DNA of 64,000 nt from a virus: positions 22,318 through 86,317 of the IMG/VR virus record IMGVR_UViG_3300025785_001261. One strand, 5' to 3'. Both the position numbers and the translations under genes were made by a program. Below are positions 5,313 through 26,945 of the stretch, piece after piece (within the stretch, counting starts at the first letter, position 1; each line of letters starts with the position of its first letter). Below the pieces are notes generated by a model. The model worked only from the letters and a program-made list of their open reading frames with translations. It was not told the origin of the DNA and made no database searches.

Positions 5313-5555
5313 ATGCCAAAGACTGTCTTGCACACATTTACCATGTCGGATGTTGACGATCCATACTTATACGCGGCTTTTCCCTTGTCAGAGTGGCAAA
5401 AGACCGAACACGGCCGGTGGGTAATGGAGCATGCCATTGGTGAACCAACCTTTTATTGTAATGCAGATGCCAACACTTACGGATTCCGGGTGGAAGTGAT
5501 AGGTGATTTGACCGAACAGGATTTGACCTATTTCAAACTAAGGTGGAGCCGATGA
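5313..5555 (+). CDS. Small hypothetical protein (ends LTEQDLTYFKLRWSR)
   Basis: 80 aa; shared FxL[KR]W C-terminal motif. Confidence 0.75.
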   Translation: MPKTVLHTFTMSDVDDPYLYAAFPLSEWQKTEHGRWVMEHAIGEPTFYCNADANTYGFRVEVIGDLTEQDLTYFKLRWSR

Positions 5556-6523
5556 AGGCATTGGTAACAGGTGGATTAGGTTTTATTGGACACTATGTAG
5601 TGGCCATGTTAGAAGCAGTAGGCTACGAAGTGGCCATCATTGATTCAATGACCACTTACGGTATCATACCCATTGGGGAACTTACACCCTTGTTGTCGGA
5701 ACGCATGGCACAGTTTAGTACTAGAGATATTACCATAGCTGACATCAGTGAACCGTTTGATCACAGCATACTTGACGGTGTAGATGTAGTCATACACTTG
5801 GCCAGCTTTCCGCGGCAAAAAGTAGTGAATCACAATCCACAGGCCGGTTCCAGAGTCATGAGTGAAGGCCTGCTGAATCTCTTAGAGCTCAGTGTCAAGC
5901 ATCAGGTTAAAAAGTTTGTGTATGTGAGCTCCAGTATGGTTTATGGCGATTTCAACAAGACCTATTTTGATGGTATAAACGAAAGTGACGACTGTAGACC
6001 CATGGGTCAGTACGGCATCATGAAGCTGGCCGGCGAGTGGTTAGTGCAGGATTATACACGCCGTACTGGCATGAGCCATGTGATTGTAAGACCCAGTGCT
6101 GTGTATGGTCCTAGAGATGTGGAAGATCGTGTGGTTAGTCGTTTCCTGATAACAGCCATGCAGGGTGGTGAAATACAGGTCAACGGTGGCAATGAGAGCC
6201 TGGACTTTACCTATGTAACTGACTGTGCCGCCGGCATAGTAGTGGCCGCAGTCAAAACAACCATTGAAAATCGCACTTACAATCTCAGCAGAGGACATGC
6301 CAGAACCTTGAGCGAAGCGGCCCAGGTAGCTGTGACCACAGCCGGCGCTGGAACTATTCGCCTGAATGATCCTGATGGTGCTTATCCCAGTCGCGGACAA
6401 TTAAATACACTTAATGCTCAACAGGATCTTGGGTTTGCTCCCGAAGTCGACATTGAACAAGGTTTCAAGGACTATTATGAATGGCTTAAGAATTCCATTT
6501 ACGGGATTAAAAAAGCAGTATAA
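5552..6523 (+). CDS. NAD-dependent nucleotide-sugar epimerase/dehydratase (extended SDR)
   Basis: TGGLGFIG Rossmann motif, SSSMVYG, YGIMK (YxxxK), VYGP, DFTYV; ATGA-coupled start with GGAG RBS. Confidence 0.93.
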   Translation: MKALVTGGLGFIGHYVVAMLEAVGYEVAIIDSMTTYGIIPIGELTPLLSERMAQFSTRDITIADISEPFDHSILDGVDVVIHLASFPRQKVVNHNPQAGSRVMSEGLLNLLELSVKHQVKKFVYVSSSMVYGDFNKTYFDGINESDDCRPMGQYGIMKLAGEWLVQDYTRRTGMSHVIVRPSAVYGPRDVEDRVVSRFLITAMQGGEIQVNGGNESLDFTYVTDCAAGIVVAAVKTTIENRTYNLSRGHARTLSEAAQVAVTTAGAGTIRLNDPDGAYPSRGQLNTLNAQQDLGFAPEVDIEQGFKDYYEWLKNSIYGIKKAV

Positions 6524-7562
6524 CAATCTACGTAGCGAAATCTTGGATGTCACAGATGAAGTGCTACGTTCGGGTCAACTCATGGGCGGTAACTACACCG
6601 CTGAGTTTGAAAACTGGTTGGCCCGTAAGAATCATTCAAAGTATGCTGTGACCTGTCACTCGGGTAGTCAGGCCTTGGAAATCATTGCCGAATACTATCG
6701 CTTACAAAGCAGTGTACGTCCGCCTAGAGTAGTCTTACCCAGTATGACCTATGTGGCCACAGCCAATGCATTCATGCGTGCTGGTTGGGACCTATGGATT
6801 TGCGACACCGATGCCAATGGCATACTAAACAAAGACAAGGTACCACAGGATCTTAGCATACAGGCCACTGTGTTGGTTGGCCTATACGGTGCTGCGGTCA
6901 ATGCCGATCGCTTCTGGGGCACTGACCTTGTGATTGAAGATGGTGCACAGCACTGGCTCAGTAACAAGTGCAACAGAGTAGGCAATGCCACAGCTATCAG
7001 CTTTGATCCCATGAAGAATCTCAATGCCTACGGCAATGGCGGTGCTGTAGTAACCGATGACATAGATCTGTTGGAATATGCTAGAGAATGGATCAACAAT
7101 GGCAAACCTCGTCATACCAATATAGGCACCAACAGTCGAATGAGTGAAGTAGACTGCGCACAGATGATGATCAAGACCCAACACATTGATGCCTGGCAAG
7201 AACGGCGCAGAAACATCTGCCTGTACTGGTTAGGACGCTTGAAAAATACCGGCATCCGTAGCTTGATCACCGCACAGAATTTTGAAACACACGCTTACCA
7301 CAAGTTTGTGATTGACGTGGATTCGCGTGATATCCTAGCAAGAAATTTAGAAATCAAAGGCATTGAAACTCGTGTACACTACCGCGAGCCCTTGCATGAG
7401 CTGACTGCTTATGCAGACTATCACGGACCTGATATTCTCAGTGTGGCAAGCAGTCTAAGCCGACGTGTACTGAGCCTTCCACTGTATCCTGAACTAAGTG
7501 ACTTGGAAGTAGAATATATTATTGATTCGGTACTAGATTGCGCTTTATCAGTGCGTAGCTAG
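6477..7562 (+). CDS. DegT/DnrJ/EryC1/StrS family PLP-dependent sugar aminotransferase
   Basis: SGSQAL, TYVATANA, IEDGAQ, SFDPMKNL (PLP Lys), GNGGA, NSRM, LSLPLYP. Confidence 0.93.
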   Translation: MNGLRIPFTGLKKQYNNLRSEILDVTDEVLRSGQLMGGNYTAEFENWLARKNHSKYAVTCHSGSQALEIIAEYYRLQSSVRPPRVVLPSMTYVATANAFMRAGWDLWICDTDANGILNKDKVPQDLSIQATVLVGLYGAAVNADRFWGTDLVIEDGAQHWLSNKCNRVGNATAISFDPMKNLNAYGNGGAVVTDDIDLLEYAREWINNGKPRHTNIGTNSRMSEVDCAQMMIKTQHIDAWQERRRNICLYWLGRLKNTGIRSLITAQNFETHAYHKFVIDVDSRDILARNLEIKGIETRVHYREPLHELTAYADYHGPDILSVASSLSRRVLSLPLYPELSDLEVEYIIDSVLDCALSVRS

Positions 7563-9120
7563 ACAACCAAGCCCAGTCATAACTTTTTTTCAAGGCATCA
7601 AAATCACCGCCAACAGCATCGTAGTATTCCACAGCATCTTCTGCACCGCACACACTCCATTCACTGTTTTTTACCGCTCCAGAATCAGTAAGCCACTCAC
7701 GTAACCGCGATTCATTTTCTATATCGGGCAGACTAGCTTTTAATTTCAACACTTCACGGAATGCTGTACGCCAGGTCATCCAGGGTGTGTCATTGTAGTA
7801 GGCTGTTCCGCTCAGGATCGGCACCACTTCGTGTGCATCATCTAGAGTAAAGTCTAGTCCCACACCGGGGTTGGCCAAGACCAAACGACGATTGTAAGCA
7901 ATCATGGCCTGATGACCATAGGTTAGACCGTTGATGGGATTGCGTGCATGGAAGATATAGTGCTTGGGTTCCTGCAATCTATCAGGTTGCCAGGTCCAGT
8001 CAAATGTACCTTCTACACGCAACTTGGCAAATACAGCAAAAAACCAAGGTGTGGTGCTGAGCCTGGCAGCTGCTTGATAGGCTGCCACACGTCCTGTGAC
8101 TCCTGAGCTACGATGTATACGATTGTTGCTGTTTTGAGTAGTTACATTTAGAAATGCCCAGTTCTGATCAGCACCTGGTTCACCGTTGTCAATAAACACA
8201 ATGTCTAGTGGTGGTTCCTGTCCACGTGCATAGCTCTTGTCAATGTAAGGATAATCGTAAATCTGCCGACGTAGATGCGTTTTGGCTTCTCTAGGTACTA
8301 CTGTAACTCCAGCACCACGTGTGAGTGGCACCACAGTTTTAGTACGTTCTTGCCACAAGCTCACTGTGGGTTCAAACACAGTACTACCACCGGTGCTGAA
8401 CATGACCAATGGTGTGACAAACTCGTGCTCCTGTATAGCGGCCACATGAGTATCGTGTGCATGTTCAACCACTGGCATGGGCTTACGTGGTACCATGATA
8501 TTCTCTACGAAGTTAAGTCCATCATACCATTCCAGTAACTTGATGTCTTGGCTACGTTCTAAGAATGTGGGTACATGTACATAAAAGGTGTCACCAAACC
8601 TTTGTCGATCAGATGCAAACACATGTAGCATGCTCTGTTGCCATTCGCTGGGATGCCAAGTAAAGTTGAAATAGGTATAGTCGCATACACTACTAACTAC
8701 CCAGGCATACTCTGACGAAGTCTTGCTCAACAGGCGACGTAGAGTTCCTAAATAGTCGCTTACATAGCGTACTGTGTGCTCACAGGCCACATCAACACCT
8801 TCGCCGTGGTCTATGCCTAGTACTGCGACAGATTCCTTGCGTTTCAGTATTGGATGGTTGTAATTGGTATCGGTATAACCAGCTGTGGGAACCAGTTCGG
8901 TGCCACCATTCTGCTGGTGTTGGCTGGGCCATACATGTCGTTGATGACTCTCCCAGGGCACAGGTTCCCATAAAAAATCAAAGCCCCGATAGTCAGTTAA
9001 ATAGTTGACCCACCAAAAGTATCTAGTACGACTCAATTCCTTAGCCTGATCCAGATCACGAGCCCATCGCTCGTGAGCAAACAAGTTGGGTTTGGGTCCG
9101 GAATAAAATATATCAAACAT
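7519..9120 (-). CDS. Glycosyltransferase-like protein with internally repeated GT-A-like units
   Basis: C-terminal domain aligns with 23913..24848 (ARNPINGLTYG, WRTAFRE..KL); lacks DxD. Confidence 0.65.
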   Translation of the reverse strand: MFDIFYSGPKPNLFAHERWARDLDQAKELSRTRYFWWVNYLTDYRGFDFLWEPVPWESHQRHVWPSQHQQNGGTELVPTAGYTDTNYNHPILKRKESVAVLGIDHGEGVDVACEHTVRYVSDYLGTLRRLLSKTSSEYAWVVSSVCDYTYFNFTWHPSEWQQSMLHVFASDRQRFGDTFYVHVPTFLERSQDIKLLEWYDGLNFVENIMVPRKPMPVVEHAHDTHVAAIQEHEFVTPLVMFSTGGSTVFEPTVSLWQERTKTVVPLTRGAGVTVVPREAKTHLRRQIYDYPYIDKSYARGQEPPLDIVFIDNGEPGADQNWAFLNVTTQNSNNRIHRSSGVTGRVAAYQAAARLSTTPWFFAVFAKLRVEGTFDWTWQPDRLQEPKHYIFHARNPINGLTYGHQAMIAYNRRLVLANPGVGLDFTLDDAHEVVPILSGTAYYNDTPWMTWRTAFREVLKLKASLPDIENESRLREWLTDSGAVKNSEWSVCGAEDAVEYYDAVGGDFDALKKSYDWAWLSSYALIKRNLVPNQ

Positions 9121-10195
9121 GATCAGAATCGACGAAATTTATTATAACACATTCTTGCCTCAAATACAAGCAAATCCTCGTGGAGCCATGCACTGGTTTG
9201 ATCCATTTGGCTCAGTGAGTTTTGAAGATTTGTGTGCGGAACCGGCAGTGGATCATGGGCATGATACTGTCAGGTATCTGTTTTGGGATCAGGAACCGCT
9301 ACATAAAAATACCACAGATCCAACACTATCTCAGTTTGTTATCAACTTCCCCAAGGGACAACGTCACCTAATAACCAGCGAACAGAACAGTGAATTTGTT
9401 GAGCAGGCCTGTGATACTTATGGATTTACTGCCCACTACTACTTCTTTCATGGCTGGGCAGCTTTAGACTGGTTCAGAGGATATGATCGTAGCTTTCTGA
9501 TTCCTCGTGCCAAACGCCGTTCCCCTGGCAAGACTTTTATGAGTCCAAATCGTATTGTATCTGGCATGCGAGATCATCGTGTGCTGTTTCTTTACAATGT
9601 ATTTAAACAGCAACTACAACACAATTATATCAGCGCACCCAGGATTTGCCCATACTCAGGCGAAAACATTCTCGAAATCGCCGCAGGTCATGCCAACACA
9701 TACCCGGACATAAAGGATGTGTTTTCTCAGGTTGAGTTGCCAAGATATTTTGCGGGAGAAGCTCAGCAGGAGATGAGTTCATATCAACTCGGCAACTGGC
9801 AGGAGGCCAGTGATAGTCTAGTGTATGTAGCTACAGAAACAGTATACTATGGCCGTAGGCAACATCTGACAGAAAAAACATTCAAGGCCATGGCATTAGA
9901 AATGCCATTTATTCTGGTGGCTGCAGCCGGTAGTCTGGAATATTTAAAGAGTTATGGATTCCAAACCTTTGGTGGAATCTGGGATGAAAGCTACGACAAC
10001 GAAACAGATCCTGTACGCCGTGTAGAAAAGGTCACACAACTACTAAAAGAGTTGGATTCATTGAATCAACACGACCGCCAACACATACACGATCTTTGTG
10101 TACCCATAGTCGAACACAATTACGTACATTTTTATTCTGGCTCTTTTGAACGTGTATTATGGAAAGAACTCACAGGAATGTTGCATGACTTTTAA
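9119..10195 (+). CDS. Glycosyltransferase-like protein (GT10/fucosyltransferase-like C-terminal motif), paralog 1
   Basis: ATET...LTEKTFKA...PFILV...GSLEYLKSYGFQTF...DESYD. Confidence 0.65.
   Translation: MIRIDEIYYNTFLPQIQANPRGAMHWFDPFGSVSFEDLCAEPAVDHGHDTVRYLFWDQEPLHKNTTDPTLSQFVINFPKGQRHLITSEQNSEFVEQACDTYGFTAHYYFFHGWAALDWFRGYDRSFLIPRAKRRSPGKTFMSPNRIVSGMRDHRVLFLYNVFKQQLQHNYISAPRICPYSGENILEIAAGHANTYPDIKDVFSQVELPRYFAGEAQQEMSSYQLGNWQEASDSLVYVATETVYYGRRQHLTEKTFKAMALEMPFILVAAAGSLEYLKSYGFQTFGGIWDESYDNETDPVRRVEKVTQLLKELDSLNQHDRQHIHDLCVPIVEHNYVHFYSGSFERVLWKELTGMLHDF
9141..9169 (-). promoter_or_regulatory. Sigma70-type promoter for the 7519..9120 gene, embedded in the opposite CDS
   Basis: Minus strand TTGTAT-N17-TATAAT with TGn extension, -10 ending 20 nt before the start codon. 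Confidence 0.5.
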
Positions 10196-11261
10196 ATTCG
10201 CTATTCATCCAGGATCGATGCCAAGACGTATGTTGATGAATGCCATGGATGCTCACTCTATACCTTACGAAATACAGTCCATACAGAATAGCATGCCCGG
10301 TACTCCATATTTTGTTACCTTTGATACGTTTGACCACAAATATGATTACATCGCTGCCATACCAGATGCGGTATTCGACCGCGATCTTAGAATTATATTC
10401 TACTATCACGAGGGTGATCATCCAGGTTTCATCCGACAGCGTCTAGACGATCGTTGTAGGCAACATTCACGAAATATAGATTGTTACAGACTGGTCAGTG
10501 CCAATACCTTGGCCGATCAATTGGATCGTTGTTGCTATTTTAATGATCACGAAATGCGGTACTGGTTAGGCAATAGATCCACCCAACCATTGGAAATCCA
10601 TAATCGTCCCAGACCATTTGAGTTTACAGCACTGAGTCGTACACACAAATGGTGGAGAGCCACAGTCATGACTGATTTAAAATTGCGCGGGCTGTTAGAT
10701 CATAGTCAATGGAGCTACAATACACTGTTGGATCTAGGTCAGGACAAGGAAGTTGATAATCCCATTGAGCTAGGCAAAATTTTTAACTATCACCTGGATC
10801 AATTCATATCGGCCGGGCCTTACACTTGCGATGACATGGACAGCGATAGTCATAACAACCATTCGATTCTGGTTCCAAAACATTTTACTGAGTCCTATTG
10901 TAGCATAGTGTTGGAGACTTTTATTGATATTGAAAATTCAAATGGCACTTTCCTGACCGAAAAAACTTTCAAGTGTATCAAGCACGGACATCCATTTGTA
11001 TTGATAGCACCGCCGGGCAGCTTACAACTTCTGCGCGACATGGGGTATCGTACCTTTGATCATGCTATAGATAATTCTTACGACTTGATAAAGGATCCTA
11101 CCGAGCGCTGGCTCAGTATTGCCAAAACTATTGAAAAATTACAGGCCCAAGATATGCAGGTCTGGTTTGAATCGTGCAGAGAAGATCTAGAACATAACCA
11201 ACAGTTATTCTGTGACAGCAAGGCTGACAGATTAAATACCCTTATTGAAAGACTACAATGA
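10185..11261 (+). CDS. Glycosyltransferase-like protein (GT10-like motif), paralog 2
   Basis: IVLET...FLTEKTFKCIKHGHPFV...GSLQLLRDMGYRTF...DNSYD. Confidence 0.65.
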   Translation: MTFKFAIHPGSMPRRMLMNAMDAHSIPYEIQSIQNSMPGTPYFVTFDTFDHKYDYIAAIPDAVFDRDLRIIFYYHEGDHPGFIRQRLDDRCRQHSRNIDCYRLVSANTLADQLDRCCYFNDHEMRYWLGNRSTQPLEIHNRPRPFEFTALSRTHKWWRATVMTDLKLRGLLDHSQWSYNTLLDLGQDKEVDNPIELGKIFNYHLDQFISAGPYTCDDMDSDSHNNHSILVPKHFTESYCSIVLETFIDIENSNGTFLTEKTFKCIKHGHPFVLIAPPGSLQLLRDMGYRTFDHAIDNSYDLIKDPTERWLSIAKTIEKLQAQDMQVWFESCREDLEHNQQLFCDSKADRLNTLIERLQ

Positions 11262-12277
11262 TCAACAGCTATACATCCTGGCAACCACTTGAAGAAGTCA
11301 TAGTGGGGCGTGCCTACACACCGGACTACTTTGACTTTATTGACAATGCGCAGGTACGCAATCAACTGCAACAGATCCTAAATGAAACTGCCGAAGATCT
11401 AGATAATCTACAGCGTACTATTGAAATCTATGGTGCTCGGGTGCGTAGACCTAATCTGATGGATCGACATCAATTTCAACAGAGTCAGTTAGCAGGACAA
11501 GGTGCTCCATTACCTCCTCTTACTCCTCGAGATTGGCAAATCAGTTTAGGACAAAAACTCCTACGGGTACTTCCCATGAAAGAACTGGACGATATTTGCA
11601 AGGACTATGCCGATCAAGTGGTCAATCCACACGGTGCTGATTGGGATCCTGGCTGCATATTAAATGGTGCAAGTGCATCGTGCATCGTGCGTGTAGGACG
11701 CGATGTGTTTTTTGACAACAGTGATTTTTTGCGTCCTGATCAAACACGCTGGATCGTAGACAACTGCTTGGGTCCAGAGTACAGAATACATGAAGCTGTG
11801 ACCGACGGTCATGGGGATGCTGTGTTTGCCATACTCAAACCCGGAGTAATTCTTTCAAGCAAACACGACATGCATCTGCATCTAGCAGAAGACTTTCCTG
11901 GTTGGGAAGTGTTGAAGATCTGGGATAGCAGTATCTGGGCTGCTATGGAAGTGGGCAAGTTCAAGTATGAAGAAAGTCCCGGTGCCTGGTATGTGCAGGG
12001 GCAAACACCTACTCCTGAGTTTACCACCTTTGTGGATACCTATCTGAACAAATGGACCGGCTTTGTGGCCGAAACAGTATTTGATGTCAACTGCCTGGTG
12101 TTGGACGAAGAAAATGTGATTTTTAGCGCCTACAATAAAAATGTATTTGATTTTTGCAAACGACATAGAATCAATCCCATCATCAGCGAACTGCGTCATA
12201 GCTATTTCTGGGACGGTGGCATTTCGTGTTGTACACAGGATCTGCGCCGCAGCGGCGGATTAGAAACTTATCTTTGA
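11258..12277 (+). CDS. Amidinotransferase (glycine / inosamine-phosphate amidinotransferase family)
   Basis: NSYTSWQPLEEVIVGR N-terminus, TPRD, GHGD (His), GGISCCTQD (catalytic Cys). Confidence 0.88.
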   Translation: MINSYTSWQPLEEVIVGRAYTPDYFDFIDNAQVRNQLQQILNETAEDLDNLQRTIEIYGARVRRPNLMDRHQFQQSQLAGQGAPLPPLTPRDWQISLGQKLLRVLPMKELDDICKDYADQVVNPHGADWDPGCILNGASASCIVRVGRDVFFDNSDFLRPDQTRWIVDNCLGPEYRIHEAVTDGHGDAVFAILKPGVILSSKHDMHLHLAEDFPGWEVLKIWDSSIWAAMEVGKFKYEESPGAWYVQGQTPTPEFTTFVDTYLNKWTGFVAETVFDVNCLVLDEENVIFSAYNKNVFDFCKRHRINPIISELRHSYFWDGGISCCTQDLRRSGGLETYL

Positions 12278-12287: not shown

Positions 12288-12569
12288 GTGCGGGCCATAG
12301 TAAGATTTTTCAAAGAAAGTCATCAGCGTAGTCCGCATGTGTTCTGGCTGGATCTAGCCAGTACCATACTGACCATGATAGCCAGTCTCAGCTTGGCTAT
12401 CACAGCCCGAGCACCACACATGGAATATATCTATCCCGGCTACTTCCTGGGCAGTTTGATCAGCATCTATACCGGTTATCGTCGACACAGCCCCTGGACT
12501 GTAGTCTTGTGCAGTTATTTCTGCGTGATGAACATTGCTGGATTTAGTAGGGCCGCTGGTTGGATCTAG
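12288..12569 (+). CDS. Small three-TM membrane protein
   Basis: 93 aa with three hydrophobic segments; GTG start. Confidence 0.7.
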   Translation: MRAIVRFFKESHQRSPHVFWLDLASTILTMIASLSLAITARAPHMEYIYPGYFLGSLISIYTGYRRHSPWTVVLCSYFCVMNIAGFSRAAGWI

Positions 12570-14022: not shown

Positions 14023-14120
14023 TTGTAGATAAAGGGATCTCTTTTACGTAGTTCTTTTAACTTGCGACGATAACGTATTTCTAGCATCACACGGTTATAG
14101 ATATTTTTAAACCATTGCAC
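14019..14120 (-). CDS. 33-aa basic peptide MQWFKNIYNRVMLEIRYRRKLKELRKRDPFIYK (not in ORF track)
   Basis: GAGGAG RBS, GTG start, TGA overlapping the carbamoyltransferase ATG; fills the gap exactly. Confidence 0.75.
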   Translation of the reverse strand: MQWFKNIYNRVMLEIRYRRKLKELRKRDPFIYK

Positions 14121-17088: not shown

Positions 17089-17597
17089 TTGTTGGTCCAA
17101 TTGATATATAGGGTTTTTCTGTAGGACACATGGGCCACTTCGCCAATCATATGATGCAAGATCTTGTTGCTGTTGTGTAACATTATTCCATGATTTTTGC
17201 GATATTCAACAAAATATTCTGCGTCATCTTCGTAGTATTTGGTGCCCATTTCACCATGGCCCCAGGTGTCAAGATATACGATGATCACATTATGTACATT
17301 TTCAAAATCCACATGGATAGTATTTCTGTAACCAGGGTAATCTCTCCATAGTTCTATCGAAGAAGATTTTGGCACATCAAAACAGGCCAGTATGCGTTGA
17401 CGCAGTTCGGTGTTGGCCAATAACAACACATGTCGATCAGATCCAGATAACGGTGTCAGCAGTTCCGGAGCATCATCAGCTGTCTGTATACGGGTAGGTG
17501 TAAATGTATCTACTAGATCGATTATTTCCTGCAGGAGATCATCTGGAAATACATCACACAGTCTCGCCCCATTGGGGGACAAAGGTTTGATGTGCAT
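17085..17597 (-). CDS. 2OG-Fe(II) oxygenase superfamily protein
   Basis: LWRD...IHVD (HxD), IVYL, GTKY, LHHM, RKTLY. Confidence 0.75.
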   Translation of the reverse strand: MHIKPLSPNGARLCDVFPDDLLQEIIDLVDTFTPTRIQTADDAPELLTPLSGSDRHVLLLANTELRQRILACFDVPKSSSIELWRDYPGYRNTIHVDFENVHNVIIVYLDTWGHGEMGTKYYEDDAEYFVEYRKNHGIMLHNSNKILHHMIGEVAHVSYRKTLYINWTNK

Positions 17598-20138: not shown

Positions 20139-21466
20139 AGTGTATGGTACCAATCTTGTAGTTGTGCGAATGTTTTGCTAAAGTTTTTTCCTCGACGCTG
20201 ATCATATTGCTTATAAAACTGCTTGAAGTCGTTGTGCAGTTTGGGCATTTCAAACGCTTCAGAATGTGGCGTCTTGACCACATCAAGATAATCAATAAGT
20301 CGTTGTACATGATTGCGTTCATGTTCGTGGATCATGTCATCGGATCCCCACTGATCCAGCCAGGCCTCTAGCTGTTGCTTGTGCCGGGTGCGTATTACAT
20401 CGGGCAAGACCAAGGCGCTTTGAAAGCTAGGGAATCTGAGTATGTTTAGAGTGAAGCTGGGAAAGTCTCGACCATATTGATGTTTCCAACGCATGAATAC
20501 TGTCAGTAGGTCGGGCAAGGTGTCCAAGCACAAGGCATTGATGGTGCACATGACGTGCAGGCCACGCAGACGATCACTGTCCATCAATTTGATCATGTTC
20601 ATGACCCAAGCACTGTAATCAAGCCCGTCTCTGATGTATTCAGCCTGGACTCCAACACTTTCCTGGCTGGTGTATAGATCCAGTTCTATCCCTTGGGTGG
20701 CAGTCAACAAGCGATCTAGATCCACGCCAGGACCTAAATTTGAGTTGATGGCTAGTCGTGTAGAACTACGCCCAGGGTTATTTTGAAACCAGTCAATCAG
20801 CTTCCAGGTATCACCACTCATGAGTGGCTCGCCACCAGTGATCCTTAGTTCTTGGAGTGTTTGATGGAGGTCTGTTTCCCACCACTTGAAAAACGCTTCA
20901 ACATAGGGATTTGTTTCGCCAAAGCGGTATAGTTGACTAGTATCGTGAGCATGAGTAAAGTGGCCACGCCCATCAGACACCAGGCCGTCATAGGCGCCGT
21001 TGGATCGTATGTCACGAACCCATGTGCTACTGAAAGCAGGGTTACAATAGCTACAAGCGAATTGGCAAGTGCGATCGAACGCGATTTCAAGCGTGCGAAG
21101 ATTGACATCTTCTTGGTGTGGTTTTTGATATGCTTCATTTAAGGCCTCCAGAGGGTAAATTCGACTTTTGTACACACGGTCACTCACAGCATCGCGACCC
21201 ATGTCTTCGATTTTCCAACAGTATTCGCAACCTTTGGGACGGTTACCCAACTGCATGTTCAATCGATCTATTTTCTTCTCTACTGTGTTGTGTATGGCAC
21301 TGGGACGGGTTTTGATTTCCTCTACGTCAATGGCATGTGCCGGTGGATGATGACAACTTGTGGTCTGACCAGATCCCAACCAGATAGTGGCATTGTACCA
21401 TTTGGCCGCGCAGAAGCTGGCACTTTTTGGGTCTAAGACCTGTTGTTTAAACTCTAAATCGTTCAC
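20135..21466 (-). CDS. Radical SAM protein with N-terminal twitch-like domain (CxAKW/CHHP subtype)
   Basis: CAAKW...SCHHP...CEYC, then CQFACSYC, GGEPL; GTG 21466 is the likely start. Confidence 0.9.
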   Translation of the reverse strand: MNDLEFKQQVLDPKSASFCAAKWYNATIWLGSGQTTSCHHPPAHAIDVEEIKTRPSAIHNTVEKKIDRLNMQLGNRPKGCEYCWKIEDMGRDAVSDRVYKSRIYPLEALNEAYQKPHQEDVNLRTLEIAFDRTCQFACSYCNPAFSSTWVRDIRSNGAYDGLVSDGRGHFTHAHDTSQLYRFGETNPYVEAFFKWWETDLHQTLQELRITGGEPLMSGDTWKLIDWFQNNPGRSSTRLAINSNLGPGVDLDRLLTATQGIELDLYTSQESVGVQAEYIRDGLDYSAWVMNMIKLMDSDRLRGLHVMCTINALCLDTLPDLLTVFMRWKHQYGRDFPSFTLNILRFPSFQSALVLPDVIRTRHKQQLEAWLDQWGSDDMIHEHERNHVQRLIDYLDVVKTPHSEAFEMPKLHNDFKQFYKQYDQRRGKNFSKTFAQLQDWYHTL

Positions 21467-22520
21467 GTATAAATTTTTCAAAGCGTTGAGGAAATTCGGC
21501 ACGGACCTGTAGCCGCATGTCTGCGAGATGTTGCTTGTTGTATTTACACACATCCTCGCAGGCTGTAAGGAAACTGGCCAGATCTTGCTGACACAGATCT
21601 CGTATCACTTCGGCACATCGCACTACACGAACATGATTGTCGGCTATGTTATCAAAAGATTCATCTATCACATGTCCAAACGTGCGGAAACCCAGTTTGT
21701 GTAGATCTCTATAAAATCCACAATTGGCCACAGCAATAAATGGATGACCAATGGCTATGGGTTTCCATATTTTTTCTGTCCGGAAACTGTAAGGATATCT
21801 ATGCACTGTTTCGGTGACCACGCTGAAATATGTGTCCTGATAAGGACGAGCCTTGAGATATATTTCTCCCCAGATTCCGCGGAACAGTTGATTTTTGATC
21901 AGTCCCACCGAGACTGTGGTATCGACAGTCGAATCAAACATGTCAGGTTCATAACCGGCCGGTAAAAGCTGTATTGGGCCGTTGCCACTATCCAAATTGG
22001 TCCACAAGGCCTGATCCAGTACCGGTCTCAACAGGTCTATCATGTAGCGTCTATGATCGCGTTGTCGTCCATTCAGGAACAGGAACTTATAAGGACGATC
22101 TGTAGAATATTGATCCTGATACTGTTGCACTGCTTCCATGTTTTCCACATAGTCATACAGCTTGGGCAAAAAACTTTCATACAACAGATGCGGATACTGT
22201 GCAGGGATATCACCGCCGGTGATAACTGGAATCTGCCCTTGCTCAAGCAGATCCATCACTTTCAATCCAAATTCACAGTGAGTAATCACAGTTTCGGACC
22301 CTTCGGCTGGATTGCTAAAAACTACATCTATAGTTTTATTTCGCACAAGATCTACGATGAGATCGCGATTGGCATTGAACTGCTGTCGACCAATCACATA
22401 TACTGCGCCTGGCAAAATTTCGTGTTGCGATAAATCCCAAAATTCTGCATCAATCCAAGGTTGTATTAGATCAGATATTTCACTAAAGGTGTCTACTACC
22501 AGCTTACGATTGCCTAGCAT
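21447..22520 (-). CDS. Glycosyltransferase-like protein (GT10-like motif), paralog 3
   Basis: VVTET...RTEKIWKPIAIGHPF...LHKLGFRTF...DESFD. Confidence 0.65.
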   Translation of the reverse strand: MLGNRKLVVDTFSEISDLIQPWIDAEFWDLSQHEILPGAVYVIGRQQFNANRDLIVDLVRNKTIDVVFSNPAEGSETVITHCEFGLKVMDLLEQGQIPVITGGDIPAQYPHLLYESFLPKLYDYVENMEAVQQYQDQYSTDRPYKFLFLNGRQRDHRRYMIDLLRPVLDQALWTNLDSGNGPIQLLPAGYEPDMFDSTVDTTVSVGLIKNQLFRGIWGEIYLKARPYQDTYFSVVTETVHRYPYSFRTEKIWKPIAIGHPFIAVANCGFYRDLHKLGFRTFGHVIDESFDNIADNHVRVVRCAEVIRDLCQQDLASFLTACEDVCKYNKQHLADMRLQVRAEFPQRFEKFIRERFRV

Positions 22521-23919
22521 AGTATTCGCACTCCTTCCACCAGGCAGTCATTTCTGGAAAGGTCTTTAAAAAATCTGTGCCATGTCTGCGATCGGCTTCG
22601 CTAAAGAATCTAAAAAAGTCGGCCTTGTTGCGTTGTAAGTATGCAGGCTCTAACTTTTGTCCATCACGCATCCAGGCTATGTCGCGATCCAGTCTGGCTA
22701 TCTCGTAGTCTTTGAATCCATGAAAAGGATCGTCCTCGCGTTCAATTTGACGTATCATCCAGGCCCAGAGATATTCCAACTGTTCTGCATAACTTTCAGG
22801 CAGTAGCTGTAAACTTTGCCAGGCAGGCTGACGAAGTACAGGAGTGTCAAACCAAACACGTTGATAAGTCTTGCTGTACAGTTTGCGCAGGCCTAAAATA
22901 CCAGCAAACAGGCTACTGAGATTGGTCACACTCAGATTGTTCATGGTCACAATAAAAGTAATGCTGTTGCGACCAGGAATCTCTGTTAGAAATTGATTAA
23001 CGCGATCCCATAAGAGATTAAAATCTAAACCGTGACGAATATATTCAGCCTGCGACCCCCACGAATCCAAACTTACATACTGCATAAAATGTTCGATCTT
23101 TTCACCCTCACACAGTTCTTTCACATGGCCTTTGTATTTTTGCCACGACTTTTCATCCACACTAAAATTACTAGTCACATCCAAGTGTAAGTTGGGTTTA
23201 GGGTTGGCCAACACATAGTCAAACACACGATAGGTATTCTTATCCAGCATGGGTTCGCCGCCAGTCATGCGGAAATGTTCTAGTTCTGGATACAGTTCAG
23301 GCCACCAAGACCAAAATGCATCAACGTAGGGATTGGCGTCACGACTAGGTATAGGGCGATTGCGACCAGTAAAGTGACTGGGATCATTGTGTATAGTGCC
23401 AGTAGGATATCCTCCCCACTTATCAACTTCTGCTTGCCAAGTTGAGCTAAACTGCGGACTACAGTAACTACAAGCCAAATTACAGGCGTGATTAAAATTA
23501 ACTTCAACATAACTAGGAACAACATTTTCATCTCCTGAGGAATTCATTATTGATTCAAAATTTACGGCCGCCCATGGCTCGCCCGATCTGTAGTGTCGAT
23601 CACTTAGTTTGCCATTGTCCTCCATGCTCCAGCAGTAGCTACATTCTGCAGGACGTTCTTGTTGCAACATGATCTTGCGTTGTATTTTTTTGTAGGGTGT
23701 ATTGTGCAGAATACTAGGATCGTTGGCCAGCGACTCAGTGGGTATTTCATGCAAGGGAGGATGGTAGCAACTGTTGTTGAGTCCGGTAGTTAAATGAAGG
23801 CTTACCTGTTTCCATTTGGCCAGGCACATGGCCGGACCCAACAGAGCCTGCATGTCCTCGGCACTGCTCAGAAATTTAGATTTGAAATCTGAAGTGATTT
23901 CATCACCCTTGTTTACCAT
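22504..23919 (-). CDS. Radical SAM protein with N-terminal twitch-like domain (CxAKW/CYHP subtype)
   Basis: CLAKW...SCYHP...CSYC, then CNLACSYC, GGEPM. Confidence 0.9.
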   Translation of the reverse strand: MVNKGDEITSDFKSKFLSSAEDMQALLGPAMCLAKWKQVSLHLTTGLNNSCYHPPLHEIPTESLANDPSILHNTPYKKIQRKIMLQQERPAECSYCWSMEDNGKLSDRHYRSGEPWAAVNFESIMNSSGDENVVPSYVEVNFNHACNLACSYCSPQFSSTWQAEVDKWGGYPTGTIHNDPSHFTGRNRPIPSRDANPYVDAFWSWWPELYPELEHFRMTGGEPMLDKNTYRVFDYVLANPKPNLHLDVTSNFSVDEKSWQKYKGHVKELCEGEKIEHFMQYVSLDSWGSQAEYIRHGLDFNLLWDRVNQFLTEIPGRNSITFIVTMNNLSVTNLSSLFAGILGLRKLYSKTYQRVWFDTPVLRQPAWQSLQLLPESYAEQLEYLWAWMIRQIEREDDPFHGFKDYEIARLDRDIAWMRDGQKLEPAYLQRNKADFFRFFSEADRRHGTDFLKTFPEMTAWWKECEYYARQS

Positions 23920-24848
23920 CCTTCTTGACTCCTGATCACATCAATTTCTTTGTCCATAAAATGACGGTTTTGCCAGTTACTGCGATAATGATGTTTGAAG
24001 AAGGCGCTTTCTTTCTCCAACATCATGTTGATGGGCAGACTCAGTTGTGTGGTAAGATCCTCGGCCACACGGCCAGCAAGTAGTTCTGGATTAGAATTTT
24101 CCACCGTTGTCCATAATTGAGCCAGAGTATCAAAGTCCTGCACCTGTTTGTAGTCCCAATCGGTCAGCATGGTCATGTAGGTGCCCATACGTGATCCTGC
24201 GATAGCCCAGATGCCATTGTCTACATCGCGTCCTACATTGTGCCATATGGTCAAGTGATCAAGATTGCGATGATGTACACGATCTTGGAATTCTGTTACT
24301 GTGGGGCGTGCGCCTTGATTCAAGCACATCTTCACTCCTTCACGGAAGCCAGCACGCCAGGCCTGGAAAGCAGATCCGTTAGGGTAAGTGGTACTATAAC
24401 AGTTGTACATGGCATGATAATCTGGATAGAAACAGAACTCCACATCATTGGCCGCAGAACCGTCTGTGTTTTCATGGGTACGCATGGTGGCCACGAACTC
24501 TCGGGTCCAGCATGACAGTCCGCCATTGCCGTACATGAGTCCATTGATGATGTTTCTAGCACGCCAACGAAATACAGCACGGTGCTCATGGGCACCTTTG
24601 AGTACGATACGTTGATTGAAAAAATCTTCGTCAGGAATGTTGTCACCGTCGATCAAGATGAATCGCTCAGTTGTACTCATTTCAGCTGCGGCCTTATGTG
24701 CGGCGTCTGATCCTTTGATGCCATCTACACGTCGTGCCCAGGGCACCATATTTTTGATACGCACCCAAGTTTCTTCCTTGTTGGGTTCATCATAGCTGAG
24801 GTATATGCAATCCAAATCGGCTACGTCTATTCCTGTTACTTCAATCAT
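23913..24848 (-). CDS. GT-A fold (GT2-like) glycosyltransferase
   Basis: YLSYDEP, GIKGSDAAHKAAA, LIDGDN (DxD), RNIINGLMYGNGG, AWRAGFREGVK; ATGA-coupled start 24848. Confidence 0.75.
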   Translation of the reverse strand: MIEVTGIDVADLDCIYLSYDEPNKEETWVRIKNMVPWARRVDGIKGSDAAHKAAAEMSTTERFILIDGDNIPDEDFFNQRIVLKGAHEHRAVFRWRARNIINGLMYGNGGLSCWTREFVATMRTHENTDGSAANDVEFCFYPDYHAMYNCYSTTYPNGSAFQAWRAGFREGVKMCLNQGARPTVTEFQDRVHHRNLDHLTIWHNVGRDVDNGIWAIAGSRMGTYMTMLTDWDYKQVQDFDTLAQLWTTVENSNPELLAGRVAEDLTTQLSLPINMMLEKESAFFKHHYRSNWQNRHFMDKEIDVIRSQEGW

Positions 24849-25180
24849 TGTAAACTCCATTTGATATGCGGTTCTGACTCGTTGACCATGACACAGATGT
24901 CTTGTGGGTGACAAGCTGTGCCTTTCCCATTGGGACGAAGTTTGTGTATTGTACTGGTTTTGATAAAGACCAATTTTCCTTCAACCACGCGACAGTTGGT
25001 TGGACCAGCTCTAAATATTTCTGGATCAACGTCTATGTAATTACCGGGTAAATCTTCCATACTGTAAAATAACACATCGCCCAGTTCGTTGTAGTATAAT
25101 CTATAGATAGGATCATGCACATCTGGCGGTACATATTGTGACAAGGCCAGCCAAAAATTATCATTGGTACTATTGCTCAT
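24845..25180 (-). CDS. Hypothetical protein
   Basis: ORF in operon (YRLYYNELG...YSMEDLPG). Confidence 0.7.
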   Translation of the reverse strand: MSNSTNDNFWLALSQYVPPDVHDPIYRLYYNELGDVLFYSMEDLPGNYIDVDPEIFRAGPTNCRVVEGKLVFIKTSTIHKLRPNGKGTACHPQDICVMVNESEPHIKWSLQ

Positions 25181-25901
25181 TGTTCCAGTCCTTGACATGA
25201 TAGTGCACCAGACCCCATTGGGCGATAGTGTTGATCCTGAAAGGATCGTTTTCCCAGACCAGTTCGTCAGTCCAATTTTCAGAGACAGTTCCTATCATAT
25301 TTTTCTTCATGTGTACTATGGTTGGACCCAATCCTGGCGGCAAGGTCACTTGATCTTCGCCAATGATAACTGCAGCCATGGCATAGACCACATCGGTGGT
25401 GGCTTCTAAATCTGGAAATTTCAACAACACACGGTACTGTTGCCAATTGGTAAAAATTGTACGCACCAGATCAAAAAAATCCTGTGCTGTTTTACTACGG
25501 CGCCAATAGGTAATGGCATTGTAAACGTCTGGCAAACTGTTATGATCAAATATCTTGCGATATAAACGAGACTGGCCTGGCGTGTCATGATAAGTCCGGC
25601 AACCGGTACTGATCACTAGATCTCTGCGTTCAAACAAGGTCCACCAATGATCAATTGGGCTGGCGCAGAGCATGTCCGCTTCTAACTTGATAGTCTGTCT
25701 GTAGGGACTAATCTCAAACATTTGCCAATCGTTAGCGAATCCGCCCAGATCTCCATGTGGTAATTGATCAACAGTCACTATGGATATGTCAGCCAGCGGA
25801 TGATGCTGTAGTATCGAGTCAGCCAGGCGCCTGGCGCAGGTCACATATTGATCGCCAATGGCCGGTATCAAGTATCCACGTTCAGCTAGCAAGGTCAACA
25901 A
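25170..25901 (-). CDS. Nucleotide-diphospho-sugar transferase (GT8-like) protein
   Basis: GYLI...Y...A..LA.SI, SPYRQTIKLEAD; paralog of the adjacent gene. Confidence 0.7.
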   Translation of the reverse strand: MLTLLAERGYLIPAIGDQYVTCARRLADSILQHHPLADISIVTVDQLPHGDLGGFANDWQMFEISPYRQTIKLEADMLCASPIDHWWTLFERRDLVISTGCRTYHDTPGQSRLYRKIFDHNSLPDVYNAITYWRRSKTAQDFFDLVRTIFTNWQQYRVLLKFPDLEATTDVVYAMAAVIIGEDQVTLPPGLGPTIVHMKKNMIGTVSENWTDELVWENDPFRINTIAQWGLVHYHVKDWNNEQ

Positions 25902-26646
25902 TGGCTCCTAAGTGTCCTTTGCCCATGGCATGAAAATCATGTGTCAGTTTCATCCAGCGTGGACGAGATTCTTGATCAGTCCAGTCCACACGATATTCAT
26001 CTGGACCTGTCTTGGTCAGTTTGTGTTCGTGTGTGACTGTGGCCAATTTCCAAGGAATATCAGCATGATTCAACACATGCCCGTTGACCATGCCTAGTGC
26101 TATACTCAGGGCAAAGTCGTTACGATACGTGGTACGAGATATGCCGTACAAGCTACGATAATGATCCCAGTGTTGGCGTACCATCTGCATGCTTTCAAAT
26201 ATCAATTGGGCCTGTTCACTGCGGCGGAACATCATGACTGTGGCCCACCACATGGGCATGCGATGATCACCAAAAGTATCCAAGTCTTTAAAAGTTTCTT
26301 TGGCTGTGACATCATAAGCGGTACGATGGGCAATAAAATCTATATCTGCTTCTAGCAAGGCCTGTAGCTGGTTGCTGGCCACCACATAGTCGGCATCCAG
26401 CACCAAGGTACAATCCCATGGTGACAGATTATAGGCATCTACACGATTGACATTGTACCAGGTGACCTGAGACGGTAGGTCCTGGAAGGTTCTAGTTGAT
26501 CCAGCAATCGGTTCTACATCCTGATTGGTTATGATTCTGGTAGGTATGCCAAGATGCCGTTCAATGTTGCTGGCTGACCAGCGAGCCATGGCTTCGTAGT
26601 CAACATGTTCGTTATTAAAAGCAAAGATTAACGCACCTGTGGTCAT
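25882..26646 (-). CDS. Nucleotide-diphospho-sugar transferase (GT8-like) protein
   Basis: GALIFAFNN..DY, SPWDCTLVLDADY (DxD), RNDFALSIA, HAMGK. Confidence 0.72.
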   Translation of the reverse strand: MTTGALIFAFNNEHVDYEAMARWSASNIERHLGIPTRIITNQDVEPIAGSTRTFQDLPSQVTWYNVNRVDAYNLSPWDCTLVLDADYVVASNQLQALLEADIDFIAHRTAYDVTAKETFKDLDTFGDHRMPMWWATVMMFRRSEQAQLIFESMQMVRQHWDHYRSLYGISRTTYRNDFALSIALGMVNGHVLNHADIPWKLATVTHEHKLTKTGPDEYRVDWTDQESRPRWMKLTHDFHAMGKGHLGAIVDLAS

Positions 26647-26945
26647 CGGTTACTGTTCAAAGTTTCATATTCAACCAACCAGGCATTGAGTTGTTCTTGC
26701 CAACGTTCAAGTACCTGCTCGTAAAATTCTTCAGCATTGACTCTTACCGGTGTTTCATACAGATCTAGGATCACAACATCACCACTACAGCATTTTAATA
26801 GAGTCAACAGCTCTGGTCCGGCCTGCCACATGCCTCCGGCATGAGCAAATACAGATTTGCCTTGGTATTTTTCTTTGAGCATGCGACGAGAAGCAGCATG
26901 CTCAAAACGGGCACGGGCGTGTGCTACAAGTTTTTCAGTATCCAT
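26643..26945 (-). CDS. Hypothetical protein, first gene of the minus-strand enzyme operon
   Basis: 100 aa; ATGA-coupled to the downstream GT. Confidence 0.75.
   Translation of the reverse strand: MDTEKLVAHARARFEHAASRRMLKEKYQGKSVFAHAGGMWQAGPELLTLLKCCSGDVVILDLYETPVRVNAEEFYEQVLERWQEQLNAWLVEYETLNSNR

Follow-up and report, generated by a model that had tools for sequence, protein, structure and literature searches.

A conserved island of sugar-modifying enzymes, glycosyltransferase-like proteins and radical SAM proteins beside the tail-fibre genes of a jumbo phage

We analyzed a 64,000-nt stretch of DNA (hereafter the window, to which all positions refer) from an uncultured freshwater jumbo myovirus of the T4 superfamily, within the Rak2/XacN1/GAP32 group, an assignment that agrees with the phage origin claimed in a previous sequence-only reading. 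The window contains a ~21-kb island that encodes sugar-modifying enzymes, glycosyltransferases and five radical SAM (rSAM) proteins and adjoins tail-fibre genes; its fibre and baseplate surroundings were confirmed. The gene order of the whole block is kept in two complete relatives (DTR genomes of 337–344 kb) and in 11 IMG/VR contigs, and given this identical order, the co-occurrence of the island genes is far beyond chance. Thus, the single syntenic island described from the sequence alone, which was proposed to be traced through relatives, is indeed conserved beside the fibre genes.

The plus-strand arm begins with an 80-aa entry of the ORF list (5313..5555, +), which starts 7 nt past TGCTATAAT, an extended -10-like site (promoter called by eye), and is apparently leaderless. 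It is followed by an extended SDR of the NDP-sugar type (5543..6523, +; PF01370, 4e-41), which is closest to UDP-sugar 4-epimerases, the best solved structure being UDP-glucose 4-epimerase 4zrm (1e-26), with UDP-GlcA 4-epimerases, Pal and UXS also near. Inspected by eye, this protein carries GxxGxxG and YGIMK motifs, and its 'SSSMVYG' segment lacks the Asp-Glu pair of 4,6-dehydratases; orthologues in relatives G002 and G003 are 60–62% identical. The next gene encodes a DegT/PseC-like PLP-dependent sugar aminotransferase (6414..7562, +; PF01041, 2e-54) with an 'SFDPMK' Lys motif, for which the top NCBIfam match is PseC (3e-38, under the cut-off of that model); its orthologues, 67–84% identical, are island-adjacent in 5 of 5 relatives. 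Because the SDR is epimerase-like, the source of the keto-sugar for the aminotransferase is not accounted for, which counts against the pathway proposed below.

Two further enzymes would decorate the sugars. An amidinotransferase of the AGAT/StrB1/HsvA/SxtG superfamily (11258..12277, +), missed by Pfam and NCBIfam, was detected by searching a profile built from 8 orthologues against the PDB (AGAT, 4e-18; HsvA, 2e-13; StrB1, 2e-12; SxtG, 6e-12). Its Cys324 and His185 align to the Cys and His that serve catalysis in AGAT, and it is 83–91% identical in relatives. On the opposite strand lies a NodU/TobZ-type carbamoyltransferase (12571..14022, -; PF16861, 1e-48; PF02543, 6e-36), which is not NodU itself, scoring 132 bits with the NodU equivalog against a cut-off of 1000. 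The epimerase, aminotransferase, amidinotransferase and carbamoyltransferase had all been named in the sequence-only reading, and these family assignments hold.

The same reading counted seven glycosyltransferase-like proteins. Three of these are mutual paralogues, the 'TEK' family (9119..10195, +; 10146..11261, +; 21447..22520, -, with orthologues at 47–59% identity), in which the alignment has invariant E/T-E-K, P, G, T-F and D columns. An AF2 model of the first copy (pLDDT 72, pTM 0.76) retrieved exclusively GT-B glycosyltransferases among its best 50 VIA matches (Z 9.0–6.5), including T4 BGT (9.0), FUT11 (9.0) and alpha1,3-FucT (8.9), and the best Foldseek matches in the PDB were also GT-B (E ~2e-3). 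Based on this model, and on the family alignment for the other two copies, the 'TEK' proteins are predicted to be GT-B fold glycosyltransferase-like. In BFVD, 22 viral proteins are homologous to the first copy, and one of them carries a fused UDP-Glc/GDP-Man dehydrogenase domain.

Two more, paralogous to each other (hhalign 96%), are GT-A candidates encoded at 25170..25901 (-; phrog_1903, 4e-12) and 25882..26646 (-). Both share an invariant DxD...H and, by protein-language-model comparison, neighbors named GT8 / Nucleotid_trans (0.96–0.97). The nearest named Atlas clusters of the latter are GT8 / PF03407, at 0.96–0.97, nucleotide-diphospho-sugar transferase-like; its relatives span 903 clusters, with D84xD86 and H239 invariant over 71 diverse sequences. 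A search by sequence against solved structures in the PDB gave no match for either protein, and we treat the GT8-like assignment as a lead only. The remaining two of the seven are unconfirmed. One, the founder of what we call the w23913 family (23913..24914, -; true start probably Met23), is well conserved (71–75% identity in relatives, 41–46% in marine contigs, 41.5% in RsoM2USA); it contains a DGD motif and is possibly a GT-A enzyme, its glycosyltransferase evidence consisting of a weak GT2 lead (0.87), and a PDB search returned no match. The other, a 533-aa protein kept in relatives (7519..9120, -), combines an N-terminal half of three W-rich repeats with a C-terminal half paralogous to the w23913 family (hhalign 97%, E 1e-10); it had no match in Pfam, NCBIfam or PHROG searches.

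The minus strand also encodes the five rSAM proteins, all members of the uncharacterized family NF033640 (cut-off 170 bits; island matches spanning 8e-83 to 2e-121), in which the twitch (auxiliary-cluster) domain is N-terminal. Subtype A comprises the proteins encoded at 15799..17100 (-; 8e-84), with a CxxxCxxC motif and an N-terminal Cys set, 17599..18816 (-; 8e-101) and 18813..20153 (-; 2e-121; >7000 homologues); subtype B, assigned in the rSAM alignment, comprises those at 20135..21553 (-; 9e-83) and 22504..23919 (-; 1.5e-88), the latter orthologous to RsoM2USA ORF349 (35% identical). Hence, the count of five put forward earlier is correct, but the likeness to BtrN/NeoN is not. The five paralogues share only 16–35% identity with one another, yet 63–86% with their own orthologues, a pattern that points to five distinct conserved roles.

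These N-twitch rSAM proteins need not act on sugars. Relatives carry 7–11 copies per genome, mostly outside the island, and in the complete relatives these occupy 2–6 further sites that lack island partners or sugar genes; Vibrio phage K566 encodes four consecutive copies surrounded by hypothetical genes; and bacterial neighborhoods are heterogeneous, with PhyH, ketoacyl synthases and methyltransferases. Weak secondary HMM matches to SPASM peptide maturases and anSME could likewise suggest that the rSAM array, together with the small ORFs and a 347-aa helical-bundle protein with invariant His/Glu motifs (w14787 family; 14787..15830, -), forms a separate system to which the sugar genes are mere neighbors, yielding a modified protein or peptide (for example, cross-linked or oxidized virion proteins) or another non-glycan product. 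We consider this unlikely. Glycosyltransferase-like genes lie interspersed among the rSAM genes, in an order kept in all relatives, and the GT-A pair, the w23913 gene and an rSAM core stay together in RsoM2USA and marine contigs. Other secondary rSAM matches are to nucleotide-handling enzymes (viperin, MoaA, QueE, BlsE), neither a RiPP recognition element nor a precursor-like peptide turned up, and bacterial arrays are sometimes adjoined by DegT, SDR and carbamoyltransferase genes. The w14787 gene, present in 11 of 11 relative loci, also accompanies such arrays, in Bacteriovoracaceae contigs; none of its >6000 metagenomic homologues has a Pfam domain, and a fold search with its AF2 model (pLDDT 71.5) gave no specific match.

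Comparison of distant loci separates a core from its surroundings. The order fibre-fibre-small ORF-GT-A-GT-A-w23913-rSAM, beside a giant structural protein and baseplate genes, persists at 24–46% identity in marine phage contigs and in the cultured Ralstonia phage RsoM2USA, whereas the amino, amidino, carbamoyl and GT-B genes come and go among relatives. The small ORF, the first gene of the minus-strand unit, encodes a 100-aa protein (26643..26945, -; apparently leaderless) whose orthologues occur in relatives, in marine contigs and, judging from position, as ORF354 in RsoM2USA. Judged by sequence conservation, this core (two GT-A-like proteins, the w23913 protein, at least one N-twitch rSAM and the 100-aa protein) appears ancient, and the amino, amidino, carbamoyl and GT-B genes appear to be lineage-specific decorations. 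The cationic decorations (amino, amidino and carbamoyl) of the glycan envisaged in the sequence-only reading are better described as variable additions, with the conserved core being smaller.

Directly upstream of the island lie two candidate acceptors. The nearer is a 342-aa Gly/Thr/Ser/Asn-rich fibre-like protein (27024..28052, -), fast-evolving (41–54% identity in relatives, 28–30% in marine contigs), with homologues invariably in this position; the farther is a 426-aa fibre/spike (28065..29345, -; PF11962, 8.6e-5, under its cut-off) with an intramolecular-chaperone-like C-terminal domain, and its adjacency to the island is kept in contigs L033, L035 and L107 and in RsoM2USA. The intergenic region between the fibre genes and the island (26946..27023, -) contains a conserved hairpin, whose stem shows compensatory changes in 8 relatives, and then a sigma70-like -10. 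The putative promoter of the minus-strand unit, TTTACC-N17-TATAAT (10 of 12 matches), has its -10 located 7–8 nt ahead of the ATG. Given this hairpin and its own -10, the island does not merely extend the fibre operon, and its expression may differ in timing from that of the fibre genes. The adjacency to fibres could also reflect synteny inherited within a variable part of the genome.

None of the conserved island enzymes has a transmembrane segment. The sole such segment in the island, in a hydrophobic 93-aa protein (12288..12569, +), belongs to a gene missing from all relative loci, and among the island genes there were no matches to Wzx/Wzy/ABC components or a polyprenyl-phosphate transferase. 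Moreover, the complete relatives yielded no match to PF00303, PF01702 or PF00483 and no sugar nucleotidyltransferase, so that the pathway must begin from host NDP-sugars. Together, these observations suggest that the island is probably a self-contained, cytoplasmic system that builds a decorated glycan. Host NDP-sugars would be converted to an NDP-amino sugar by the epimerase-type SDR and the DegT aminotransferase; the amidinotransferase and carbamoyltransferase would attach amidino and carbamoyl groups; and three GT-B and two to four GT-A-like transferases would assemble the sugars on an acceptor. The five non-redundant rSAM proteins might each catalyze a different radical step, acting on the sugars or on the acceptor; for auxiliary-cluster enzymes, the most plausible chemistry is dehydrogenation or epimerization. 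The likeliest acceptor would be the fibre proteins encoded immediately upstream (27024–29345). We favor the virion fibres as the target, albeit tentatively, and the complete scheme of a soluble island glycosylating them likewise has, in our judgment, a little less than an even chance. We found no publication describing this enzyme set, in line with the earlier statement that no such phage pathway is known to have been characterized, and the island would represent a new form of virus-encoded glycosylation.

The host envelope ranks second as acceptor, a doubtful but still substantial alternative in which the same pathway would place cationic or carbamoylated sugars on a surface glycan of the host, such as LPS core, O-antigen or capsule. 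Soluble enzymes of the GT8 and GT-B classes are known to act in LPS core synthesis on the inner membrane face; the lack of transmembrane segments is thus compatible with such a target, and both classes may be present here, the GT8-like pair being a lead. Consistent with this alternative are the separate transcription unit, the resemblance of the aminotransferase to ArnB-type enzymes (NF008658, 1.5e-24) and the closest phage homologue of the amidinotransferase, a gene of cyanophage S-SCSM2R (30% identical) located among KdsA/KdsB, 2OG oxygenases and glycosyltransferases. A remodeled envelope could block superinfection, prevent progeny from re-adsorbing to infected cells or debris, or alter the cell surface through the long latent period of a jumbo phage. 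Nevertheless, the island encodes no lipid-carrier transferase, flippase, polymerase or exporter, and the deep conservation of the fibre adjacency spans lineages whose hosts are presumably very different and differ in their envelopes; both points count against this alternative.

A diffusible aminoglycoside- or guanidino-sugar-like antibiotic or signal is quite improbable. The aminotransferase, StrB1-family, TobZ-family and twitch rSAM proteins recall aminoglycoside and saxitoxin-type pathways, and the island enzymes are all soluble, but five to seven glycosyltransferase-like proteins far exceed those of known pseudo-oligosaccharide pathways, the matches include no cyclitol synthase, exporter or self-resistance gene, and the linkage to fibre genes is conserved. 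Least probable of all is hypermodification of phage DNA with a decorated sugar against restriction or CRISPR, a target entertained in the sequence-only reading. The GT-B model does retrieve T4 beta- and alpha-glucosyltransferases near the top (Z 9.0 and 7.8), and the promoter is possibly an early one, but dozens of other GT-B enzymes tie with them, and DNA is disfavored because ThyA-family dNMP hydroxymethylase (hydroxymethyl-pyrimidine synthase) and TGT/DpdA, the known routes to glycosylatable bases, are both missing from the two complete relatives.

Several smaller ORFs complete the island. A 170-aa protein (17085..17597, -), previously labeled a 2OG oxygenase, is absent from relatives and had no match in Pfam (E<=10), NCBIfam, PHROGs or the PDB, leaving that call unconfirmed. 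A 227-aa variable protein (14107..14790, -) had phrog_7084 (9e-6) as its only library match and occurs among relatives in L010 only. A 117-aa protein (24845..25198, -) is conserved, with orthologues at 36–52% identity. Finally, a basic micro-ORF (14019..14120, -), whose stop overlaps the start of the carbamoyltransferase gene, encodes a conserved peptide ending in RYRKKLKELRKRDPFIYK that recurs in 9 of 11 relatives, including the divergent L032 and L034.

The genes at 5552-26945, proposed from the sequence alone to form a single phage-encoded glycan pathway, do occur together in relatives: the whole island, in the same order, is present in 11 IMG/VR contigs and in two complete genomes of 337 and 344 kb with terminal repeats, and the conserved order runs from the epimerase/dehydratase (SDR) gene through the fibre genes (27024-29345, minus strand) to the gene for a giant protein. 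A 93-aa membrane protein and the genes at 14107-14790 and 17085-17597 are variable in these relatives, and the island had no megablast match among 50,697 phage records. The island is real, coherent and conserved, and is read most economically as a cytoplasmic pathway; it would build and transfer a glycan decorated with amino, amidino and carbamoyl groups, with the adjacent fibre proteins as the favoured acceptor.

The sugar-modifying enzymes named in the sequence-only reading largely stood, with Pfam and NCBIfam bearing out the SDR, the DegT aminotransferase and the carbamoyltransferase. The SDR (5543-6523) matches PF01370 at 141 bits, with 'TGGLGFIG' (GxxGxxG) and 'YGIMK' (YxxxK) readable in its sequence. 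An NDP-hexose 4,6-dehydratase of the RmlB type was rejected for this protein: the motif 'SSSMVYG' lacks the Asp-Glu (T-D-E) pair, TIGR01181 reaches 107 bits against a cut-off of 365, and the nearest solved proteins are UDP-sugar 4-epimerases. With the SDR epimerase-like and the dehydratase Asp-Glu pair missing, the keto-sugar for DegT may come from another enzyme; one possibility, by analogy only, is that a radical SAM dehydrogenase would supply it. DegT itself (6414-7562) matches PF01041 at 185 bits (cut-off 19.8), and its PLP-Lys motif S-x-x-x-x-K reads 'SFDPMK', but no NCBIfam equivalog cut-off is reached (PseC, 132 versus 423), so that the call is one of family and not of specificity. The carbamoyltransferase (12571-14022) exceeds the cut-offs of both PF02543 (N-terminal, Kae1-like; 125 bits) and PF16861 (C-terminal, YrdC-like; 165 bits), and is not a NodU equivalog. 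The amidinotransferase (11258-12277) was missed by the curated libraries and was recovered with a profile of eight orthologues, which matches the AGAT/StrB1 superfamily (AGAT at 4e-18, and also HsvA, StrB1 and SxtG). Three aligned stretches span profile positions 2-339, placing 'GGISC', close to the C-terminus, on AGAT 'GGFHC' with its catalytic Cys, and 'GHGDA' on 'PHIDA' with the catalytic His. A basic micro-ORF (14019-14120, minus strand), ending in RYRKKLKELRKRDPFIYK, has a stop that overlaps the start of the carbamoyltransferase gene and is near-invariant in 9 of 11 relatives, divergent ones included.

Five radical SAM (rSAM) proteins were confirmed by Pfam and NCBIfam, but not as the BtrN/NeoN type first suggested: all five belong to family NF033640, scoring 279-406 bits (cut-off 170), with a SPASM/twitch domain at residues ~9-106 and the CxxxCxxC core after it, the cysteines of this core and of an N-terminal cluster being invariant in our alignment of these N-terminal-twitch (N-twitch) proteins. 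We rejected the BtrN/NeoN type on the inverted domain order, and no BtrN/NeoN model was among the matches listed; a similar chemistry is still conceivable. Identity to the reference copy of the alignment is as low as 16-35% for the paralogues and extra copies, but reaches 63-86% between each window paralogue and its own orthologue in relatives, a pattern of divergence that argues for five separate conserved functions. The two complete relatives carry 7 and 11 NF033640 copies over the cut-off, versus 0 of 14 control genomes, a strong expansion of the family in this lineage of phages. Outside the island, 2-6 extra rSAM genes per complete relative lie beside unrelated hypothetical genes (at 74354-78112, 156394, 207536, 244138 and 260047 in G003:C1, and at 73417 and 331472 in G002:C1), and these scattered copies have no island partners nearby.

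Related bacterial loci, which we searched for with a four-sequence rSAM alignment, include tandem arrays in Bacteriovoracaceae, Flavobacteriales, Saprospiraceae, Polyangiaceae, Paenibacillus and others. These arrays occasionally include DegT, SDR, carbamoyltransferase or the family of 14787-15830, in otherwise heterogeneous surroundings, and neighbourhood analysis of 70+ bacterial N-twitch loci showed no single recurring context. A literature search found no paper on NF033640. These observations bear on a composite island, in which the radical SAM system would be unrelated to the sugar genes around it; we consider this less likely, and an N-twitch rSAM gene is still found with the fibre genes in distantly related contigs.

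The seven glycosyltransferase (GT)-like proteins counted from the sequence fared unevenly: a GT-B fold is supported for three and a GT8-like lead exists for two, whereas two others (23913-24914 and 7519-9120) were unconfirmed. The first three (9119-10195, 10146-11261 and 21447-22520) align over a common C-terminal T-E-K...P-F motif. All 50 structural matches listed for the AlphaFold model of 9119-10195 (pLDDT 72, with low confidence in the N-terminal domain) are GT-B glycosyltransferases. T4 BGT, FUT11, an alpha1,3-fucosyltransferase and FUT9 score Z 8.6-9.0, and the entries 1c3j (Z 9.0, rmsd 5.6 A over 245 aligned residues) and 5zoi (Z 8.9) are among these matches. We regard the members of this family as putative GT-B glycosyltransferases (GT10-like) with two predicted Rossmann-like domains. 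The viral structure library holds 22 relatives of 9119-10195, one of them fused to a UDP-glucose/GDP-mannose dehydrogenase domain. The next two proteins, 25170-25901 and 25882-26646, are paralogues; language-model neighbours of the latter are GT8, nucleotide-diphospho-sugar transferase and PF03407 (0.96-0.97), and its DxD...H pattern is invariant in 71 diverse relatives. The family has no Pfam match, no PDB sequence was matched by profiles built from 9 and from 71 sequences, and a comparison with a local GT2 alignment by hhalign fell short of significance (E 0.03-0.35). Both proteins are candidate GT-A/GT8 enzymes, and the GT8 call for 25882-26646 is only a lead because no solved structure is matched in sequence. 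As for the remaining two, 23913-24914 is related to the C-terminal half of 7519-9120; its family has no PDB match, and Atlas gave viral hypothetical clusters only. The 533-aa product of 7519-9120 (minus strand) carries three copies of a W-rich motif, F/W-x-x-V...DY..F-x-F/W-x-W-x-P..W, at residues ~33-66, 138-170 and 358-391.

The proposed 2OG oxygenase (17085-17597) was unconfirmed: the one feature in its favour is an 'HVD...H' pattern found by eye, the class being defined by a DSBH fold with HxD/E...H; Pfam (E<=10), NCBIfam, PHROGs and PDB gave no support, and the gene is not conserved. The conserved protein of 14787-15830 (minus strand) belongs to a family with no match in Pfam, NCBIfam, PHROG or PDB, and its AF2 model fits generic helical bundles only. 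Invariant His/Glu pairs (LHRYFE, CHEFE) on this predicted bundle may form a metal site. The same family adjoins N-twitch rSAM arrays in Bacteriovoracaceae contigs (loci L044 and L053).

Beyond the close relatives, contigs at 24-70% identity, clearly of phage origin, keep in this order the fibre, the fibre-like protein, a 100-aa ORF, the two GT-A-like proteins, the 23913-24914 family and an N-twitch rSAM, and the amino, amidino, carbamoyl and GT-B genes vary. Seven loci in which the island is accompanied by fibre, baseplate, gp55 and gp46/47 genes (L031-L035, L090 and L107) were deposited within bacterial MAGs (Haliscomenobacter EUL_031 ctg1/ctg3, Legionellales SP228, TMED41, TMED56 and MED657) and are almost certainly misbinned jumbo-phage DNA. 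A reduced core is present in the cultured Ralstonia phage RsoM2USA (ORF348-355; MG752970.1, 216665-223553), where every gene is annotated as hypothetical. In the same order as in the window, it comprises a fibre, a small ORF, two GT-A-like genes, one or more genes like 23913-24914 and an N-twitch rSAM of subtype B, at identities of 27-41%, and it likewise adjoins a giant structural protein (2541 aa) and baseplate genes. Unlike the window, it lacks DegT, the amidinotransferase, the carbamoyltransferase, all three GT-B genes and all but one of the five rSAMs. The RsoM2USA paper covers proteomics of ten major bands only and does not mention glycans; with a cultured phage that carries the reduced core, the question is directly testable.

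DNA, one of the targets first put forward, is now less likely. T4 DNA glucosylation by alpha- and beta-glucosyltransferases resembles the GT-B triplet in fold, T4 BGT being among the tied top structural matches, but it needs hydroxymethyl-dCMP synthesis, which is absent from the complete relatives of the window phage. PF00303 (ThyA family) was absent from both complete relatives in a search that found it in 10 of 14 control genomes, and TGT/DpdA was likewise absent from them, so that no known route to a DNA base open to glycosylation is left. The complete relatives also lack a sugar nucleotidyltransferase, and the pathway must therefore start from host NDP-sugars.

The choice between the virion and the host envelope is less one-sided. 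An Und-P-dependent surface polysaccharide locus (Wzx/Wzy or ABC) was rejected: Pfam detected no lipid-carrier (initiating polyprenyl-phosphate) transferase, flippase, polymerase or exporter in the island, and the conserved island proteins have no membrane segments. The fibre proteins are favoured as the acceptor because of this absence of membrane steps and of DNA-base genes, and because the adjacency of fibre and island survives deep divergence, with presumably different hosts. In the 27024-28052 protein, N-x-S/T sequons counted by eye are not above the frequency expected from composition. Remodelling of the host envelope in place of fibre glycosylation is a serious rival, since soluble GT8 and GT-B enzymes also build LPS cores and the island has a promoter separate from that of the fibre genes. 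Specifically, the fibre-like gene and the island are separated by a hairpin (26946-27023, minus strand) that is conserved, its stem showing compensatory changes in eight relatives. Next comes a TATAAT, also conserved, which ends 7-8 nt short of the start codon (ATG) of the 100-aa ORF. The island thus forms a transcription unit of its own, whose first gene, this ORF, would apparently yield a leaderless mRNA. Generic promoter and terminator scans did not rise above shuffles, and this single intergenic site was retained from them because it is conserved. The T4 late-promoter motif TATAAATA occurs once versus two expected; the looser NNTAAATA, tried as a late-promoter marker, lies 5-25 nt upstream of several structural genes and also of two island genes, and is therefore non-discriminating. 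The plus-strand arm opens with a similar arrangement of TGCTATAAT and ATG at ~5300-5315.

To our knowledge, good documentation of glycosylation encoded by viruses is limited to giant eukaryotic viruses, a few mycobacteriophages and the glucosylation of DNA. Mimivirus fibril clusters resemble the island in being virus-encoded and host-independent, with an SDR and a DegT-type aminotransferase leading to amino-deoxy sugars and several GTs decorating the virus's own surface fibres; their glycans are chemically characterised, whereas the island is known from genes alone. Mimivirus infects eukaryotes, and we know of no amidinotransferase, carbamoyltransferase or radical SAM enzyme in its clusters. 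Aminoglycoside and aminocyclitol tailoring (StrB1, StrS/DegT, TobZ, BtrN) shares with the island an amidinotransferase, DegT, a TobZ-type carbamoyltransferase and the notion that a twitch-domain rSAM dehydrogenase supplies an aminotransferase with its substrate, likenesses that speak for a small-molecule product, a less likely reading. The island differs in its lack of a cyclitol synthase, its N-terminal-twitch NF033640 proteins, its many more GTs and its position in a phage beside fibre genes. In the T4-like aquatic cyanomyovirus S-SCSM2R (Synechococcus), a homologous amidinotransferase (30% identity) adjoins GTs, KdsA/KdsB, an epimerase and 2OG oxygenases; unlike the island, that locus has Kdo genes and GT11/GT1/GT2, lacks an N-twitch rSAM array, has no carbamoyltransferase within the stretch covered, and is not beside fibres. 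Mycobacteriophages likewise encode GTs near structural genes, which glycosylate capsid and tail proteins in the cytoplasm (Freeman et al. 2023, cited in PMC12619734); these siphoviruses of Actinobacteria differ in drawing on host sugars with a single GT or a small number of them, and are not known to have a sugar-tailoring pathway or an rSAM. Virus-encoded glycosylation is thus known, and what is new is the enzyme set and its link to an uncharacterised rSAM family expanded in an abundant phage lineage.

If the glycan pathway is true, no phage-encoded sugar pathway described so far would be as elaborate: decoration with amino, amidino and carbamoyl groups would be joined to five proteins of an rSAM family without known function. 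The answer would give NF033640 its chemistry and would decide between fibre glycosylation and host remodelling by jumbo phages. A more daring version, to which we would assign a low probability, is that the N-twitch rSAMs and their GT-A/GT-B partners carry out novel radical reactions on fibre-attached glycans, giving a virus-made, cationic, hyper-decorated glycan coat. Such reactions might include in-situ oxidation to keto-sugars followed by amination, amidination and carbamoylation, or C-C/C-O cross-links; variable decorations would then set host range or shield the fibres, and many of the abundant jumbo phages of aquatic habitats would carry the system.

The source record is a single contig of 86,317 bp without a terminal repeat, and is therefore a fragment. 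Downstream of the island lie genes for a gp25-like baseplate protein, a VgrG/gp5-like hub, a 1134-aa baseplate wedge (phrog_10646, 4e-275), a gp55-like late sigma factor and gp46/47-like nuclease subunits, together with a 4968-aa ORF (30179-45085, minus strand) with an FG-GAP repeat and a weak CBM5/12 match, kept in the complete relatives at 59% identity and 4718-4992 aa, which is probably a giant fibre or baseplate-attached protein. The wedge is 32-35% identical to those of the Rak2-group jumbo phages GAP32, CBB, Serratia BF, XbC2, Atu_ph07 and Phosso, and window DNA was found in freshwater metagenome runs under 20 study codes, with seven runs marked as possible sources. From this gene content, these wedge relatives and these runs, the window phage is a jumbo myovirus of the T4 superfamily, uncultured and from freshwater. 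Its lineage is very abundant, with 6,000-7,000 metagenomic homologues for individual proteins of the island. A sixth radical SAM protein (62759-63859, plus strand), encoded after the gp46/47-like nuclease genes, is of a different type, lacking the N-terminal twitch domain, and its best matches are a tungsten-cofactor maturase and phrog_21308. At the other end of the window, 1231-2520 (plus strand) encodes a DUF2201 metallopeptidase-like and VWA protein, upstream of which are several ORFs of 90-100 aa and a consensus promoter, TTGACC-N17-TATAAT.
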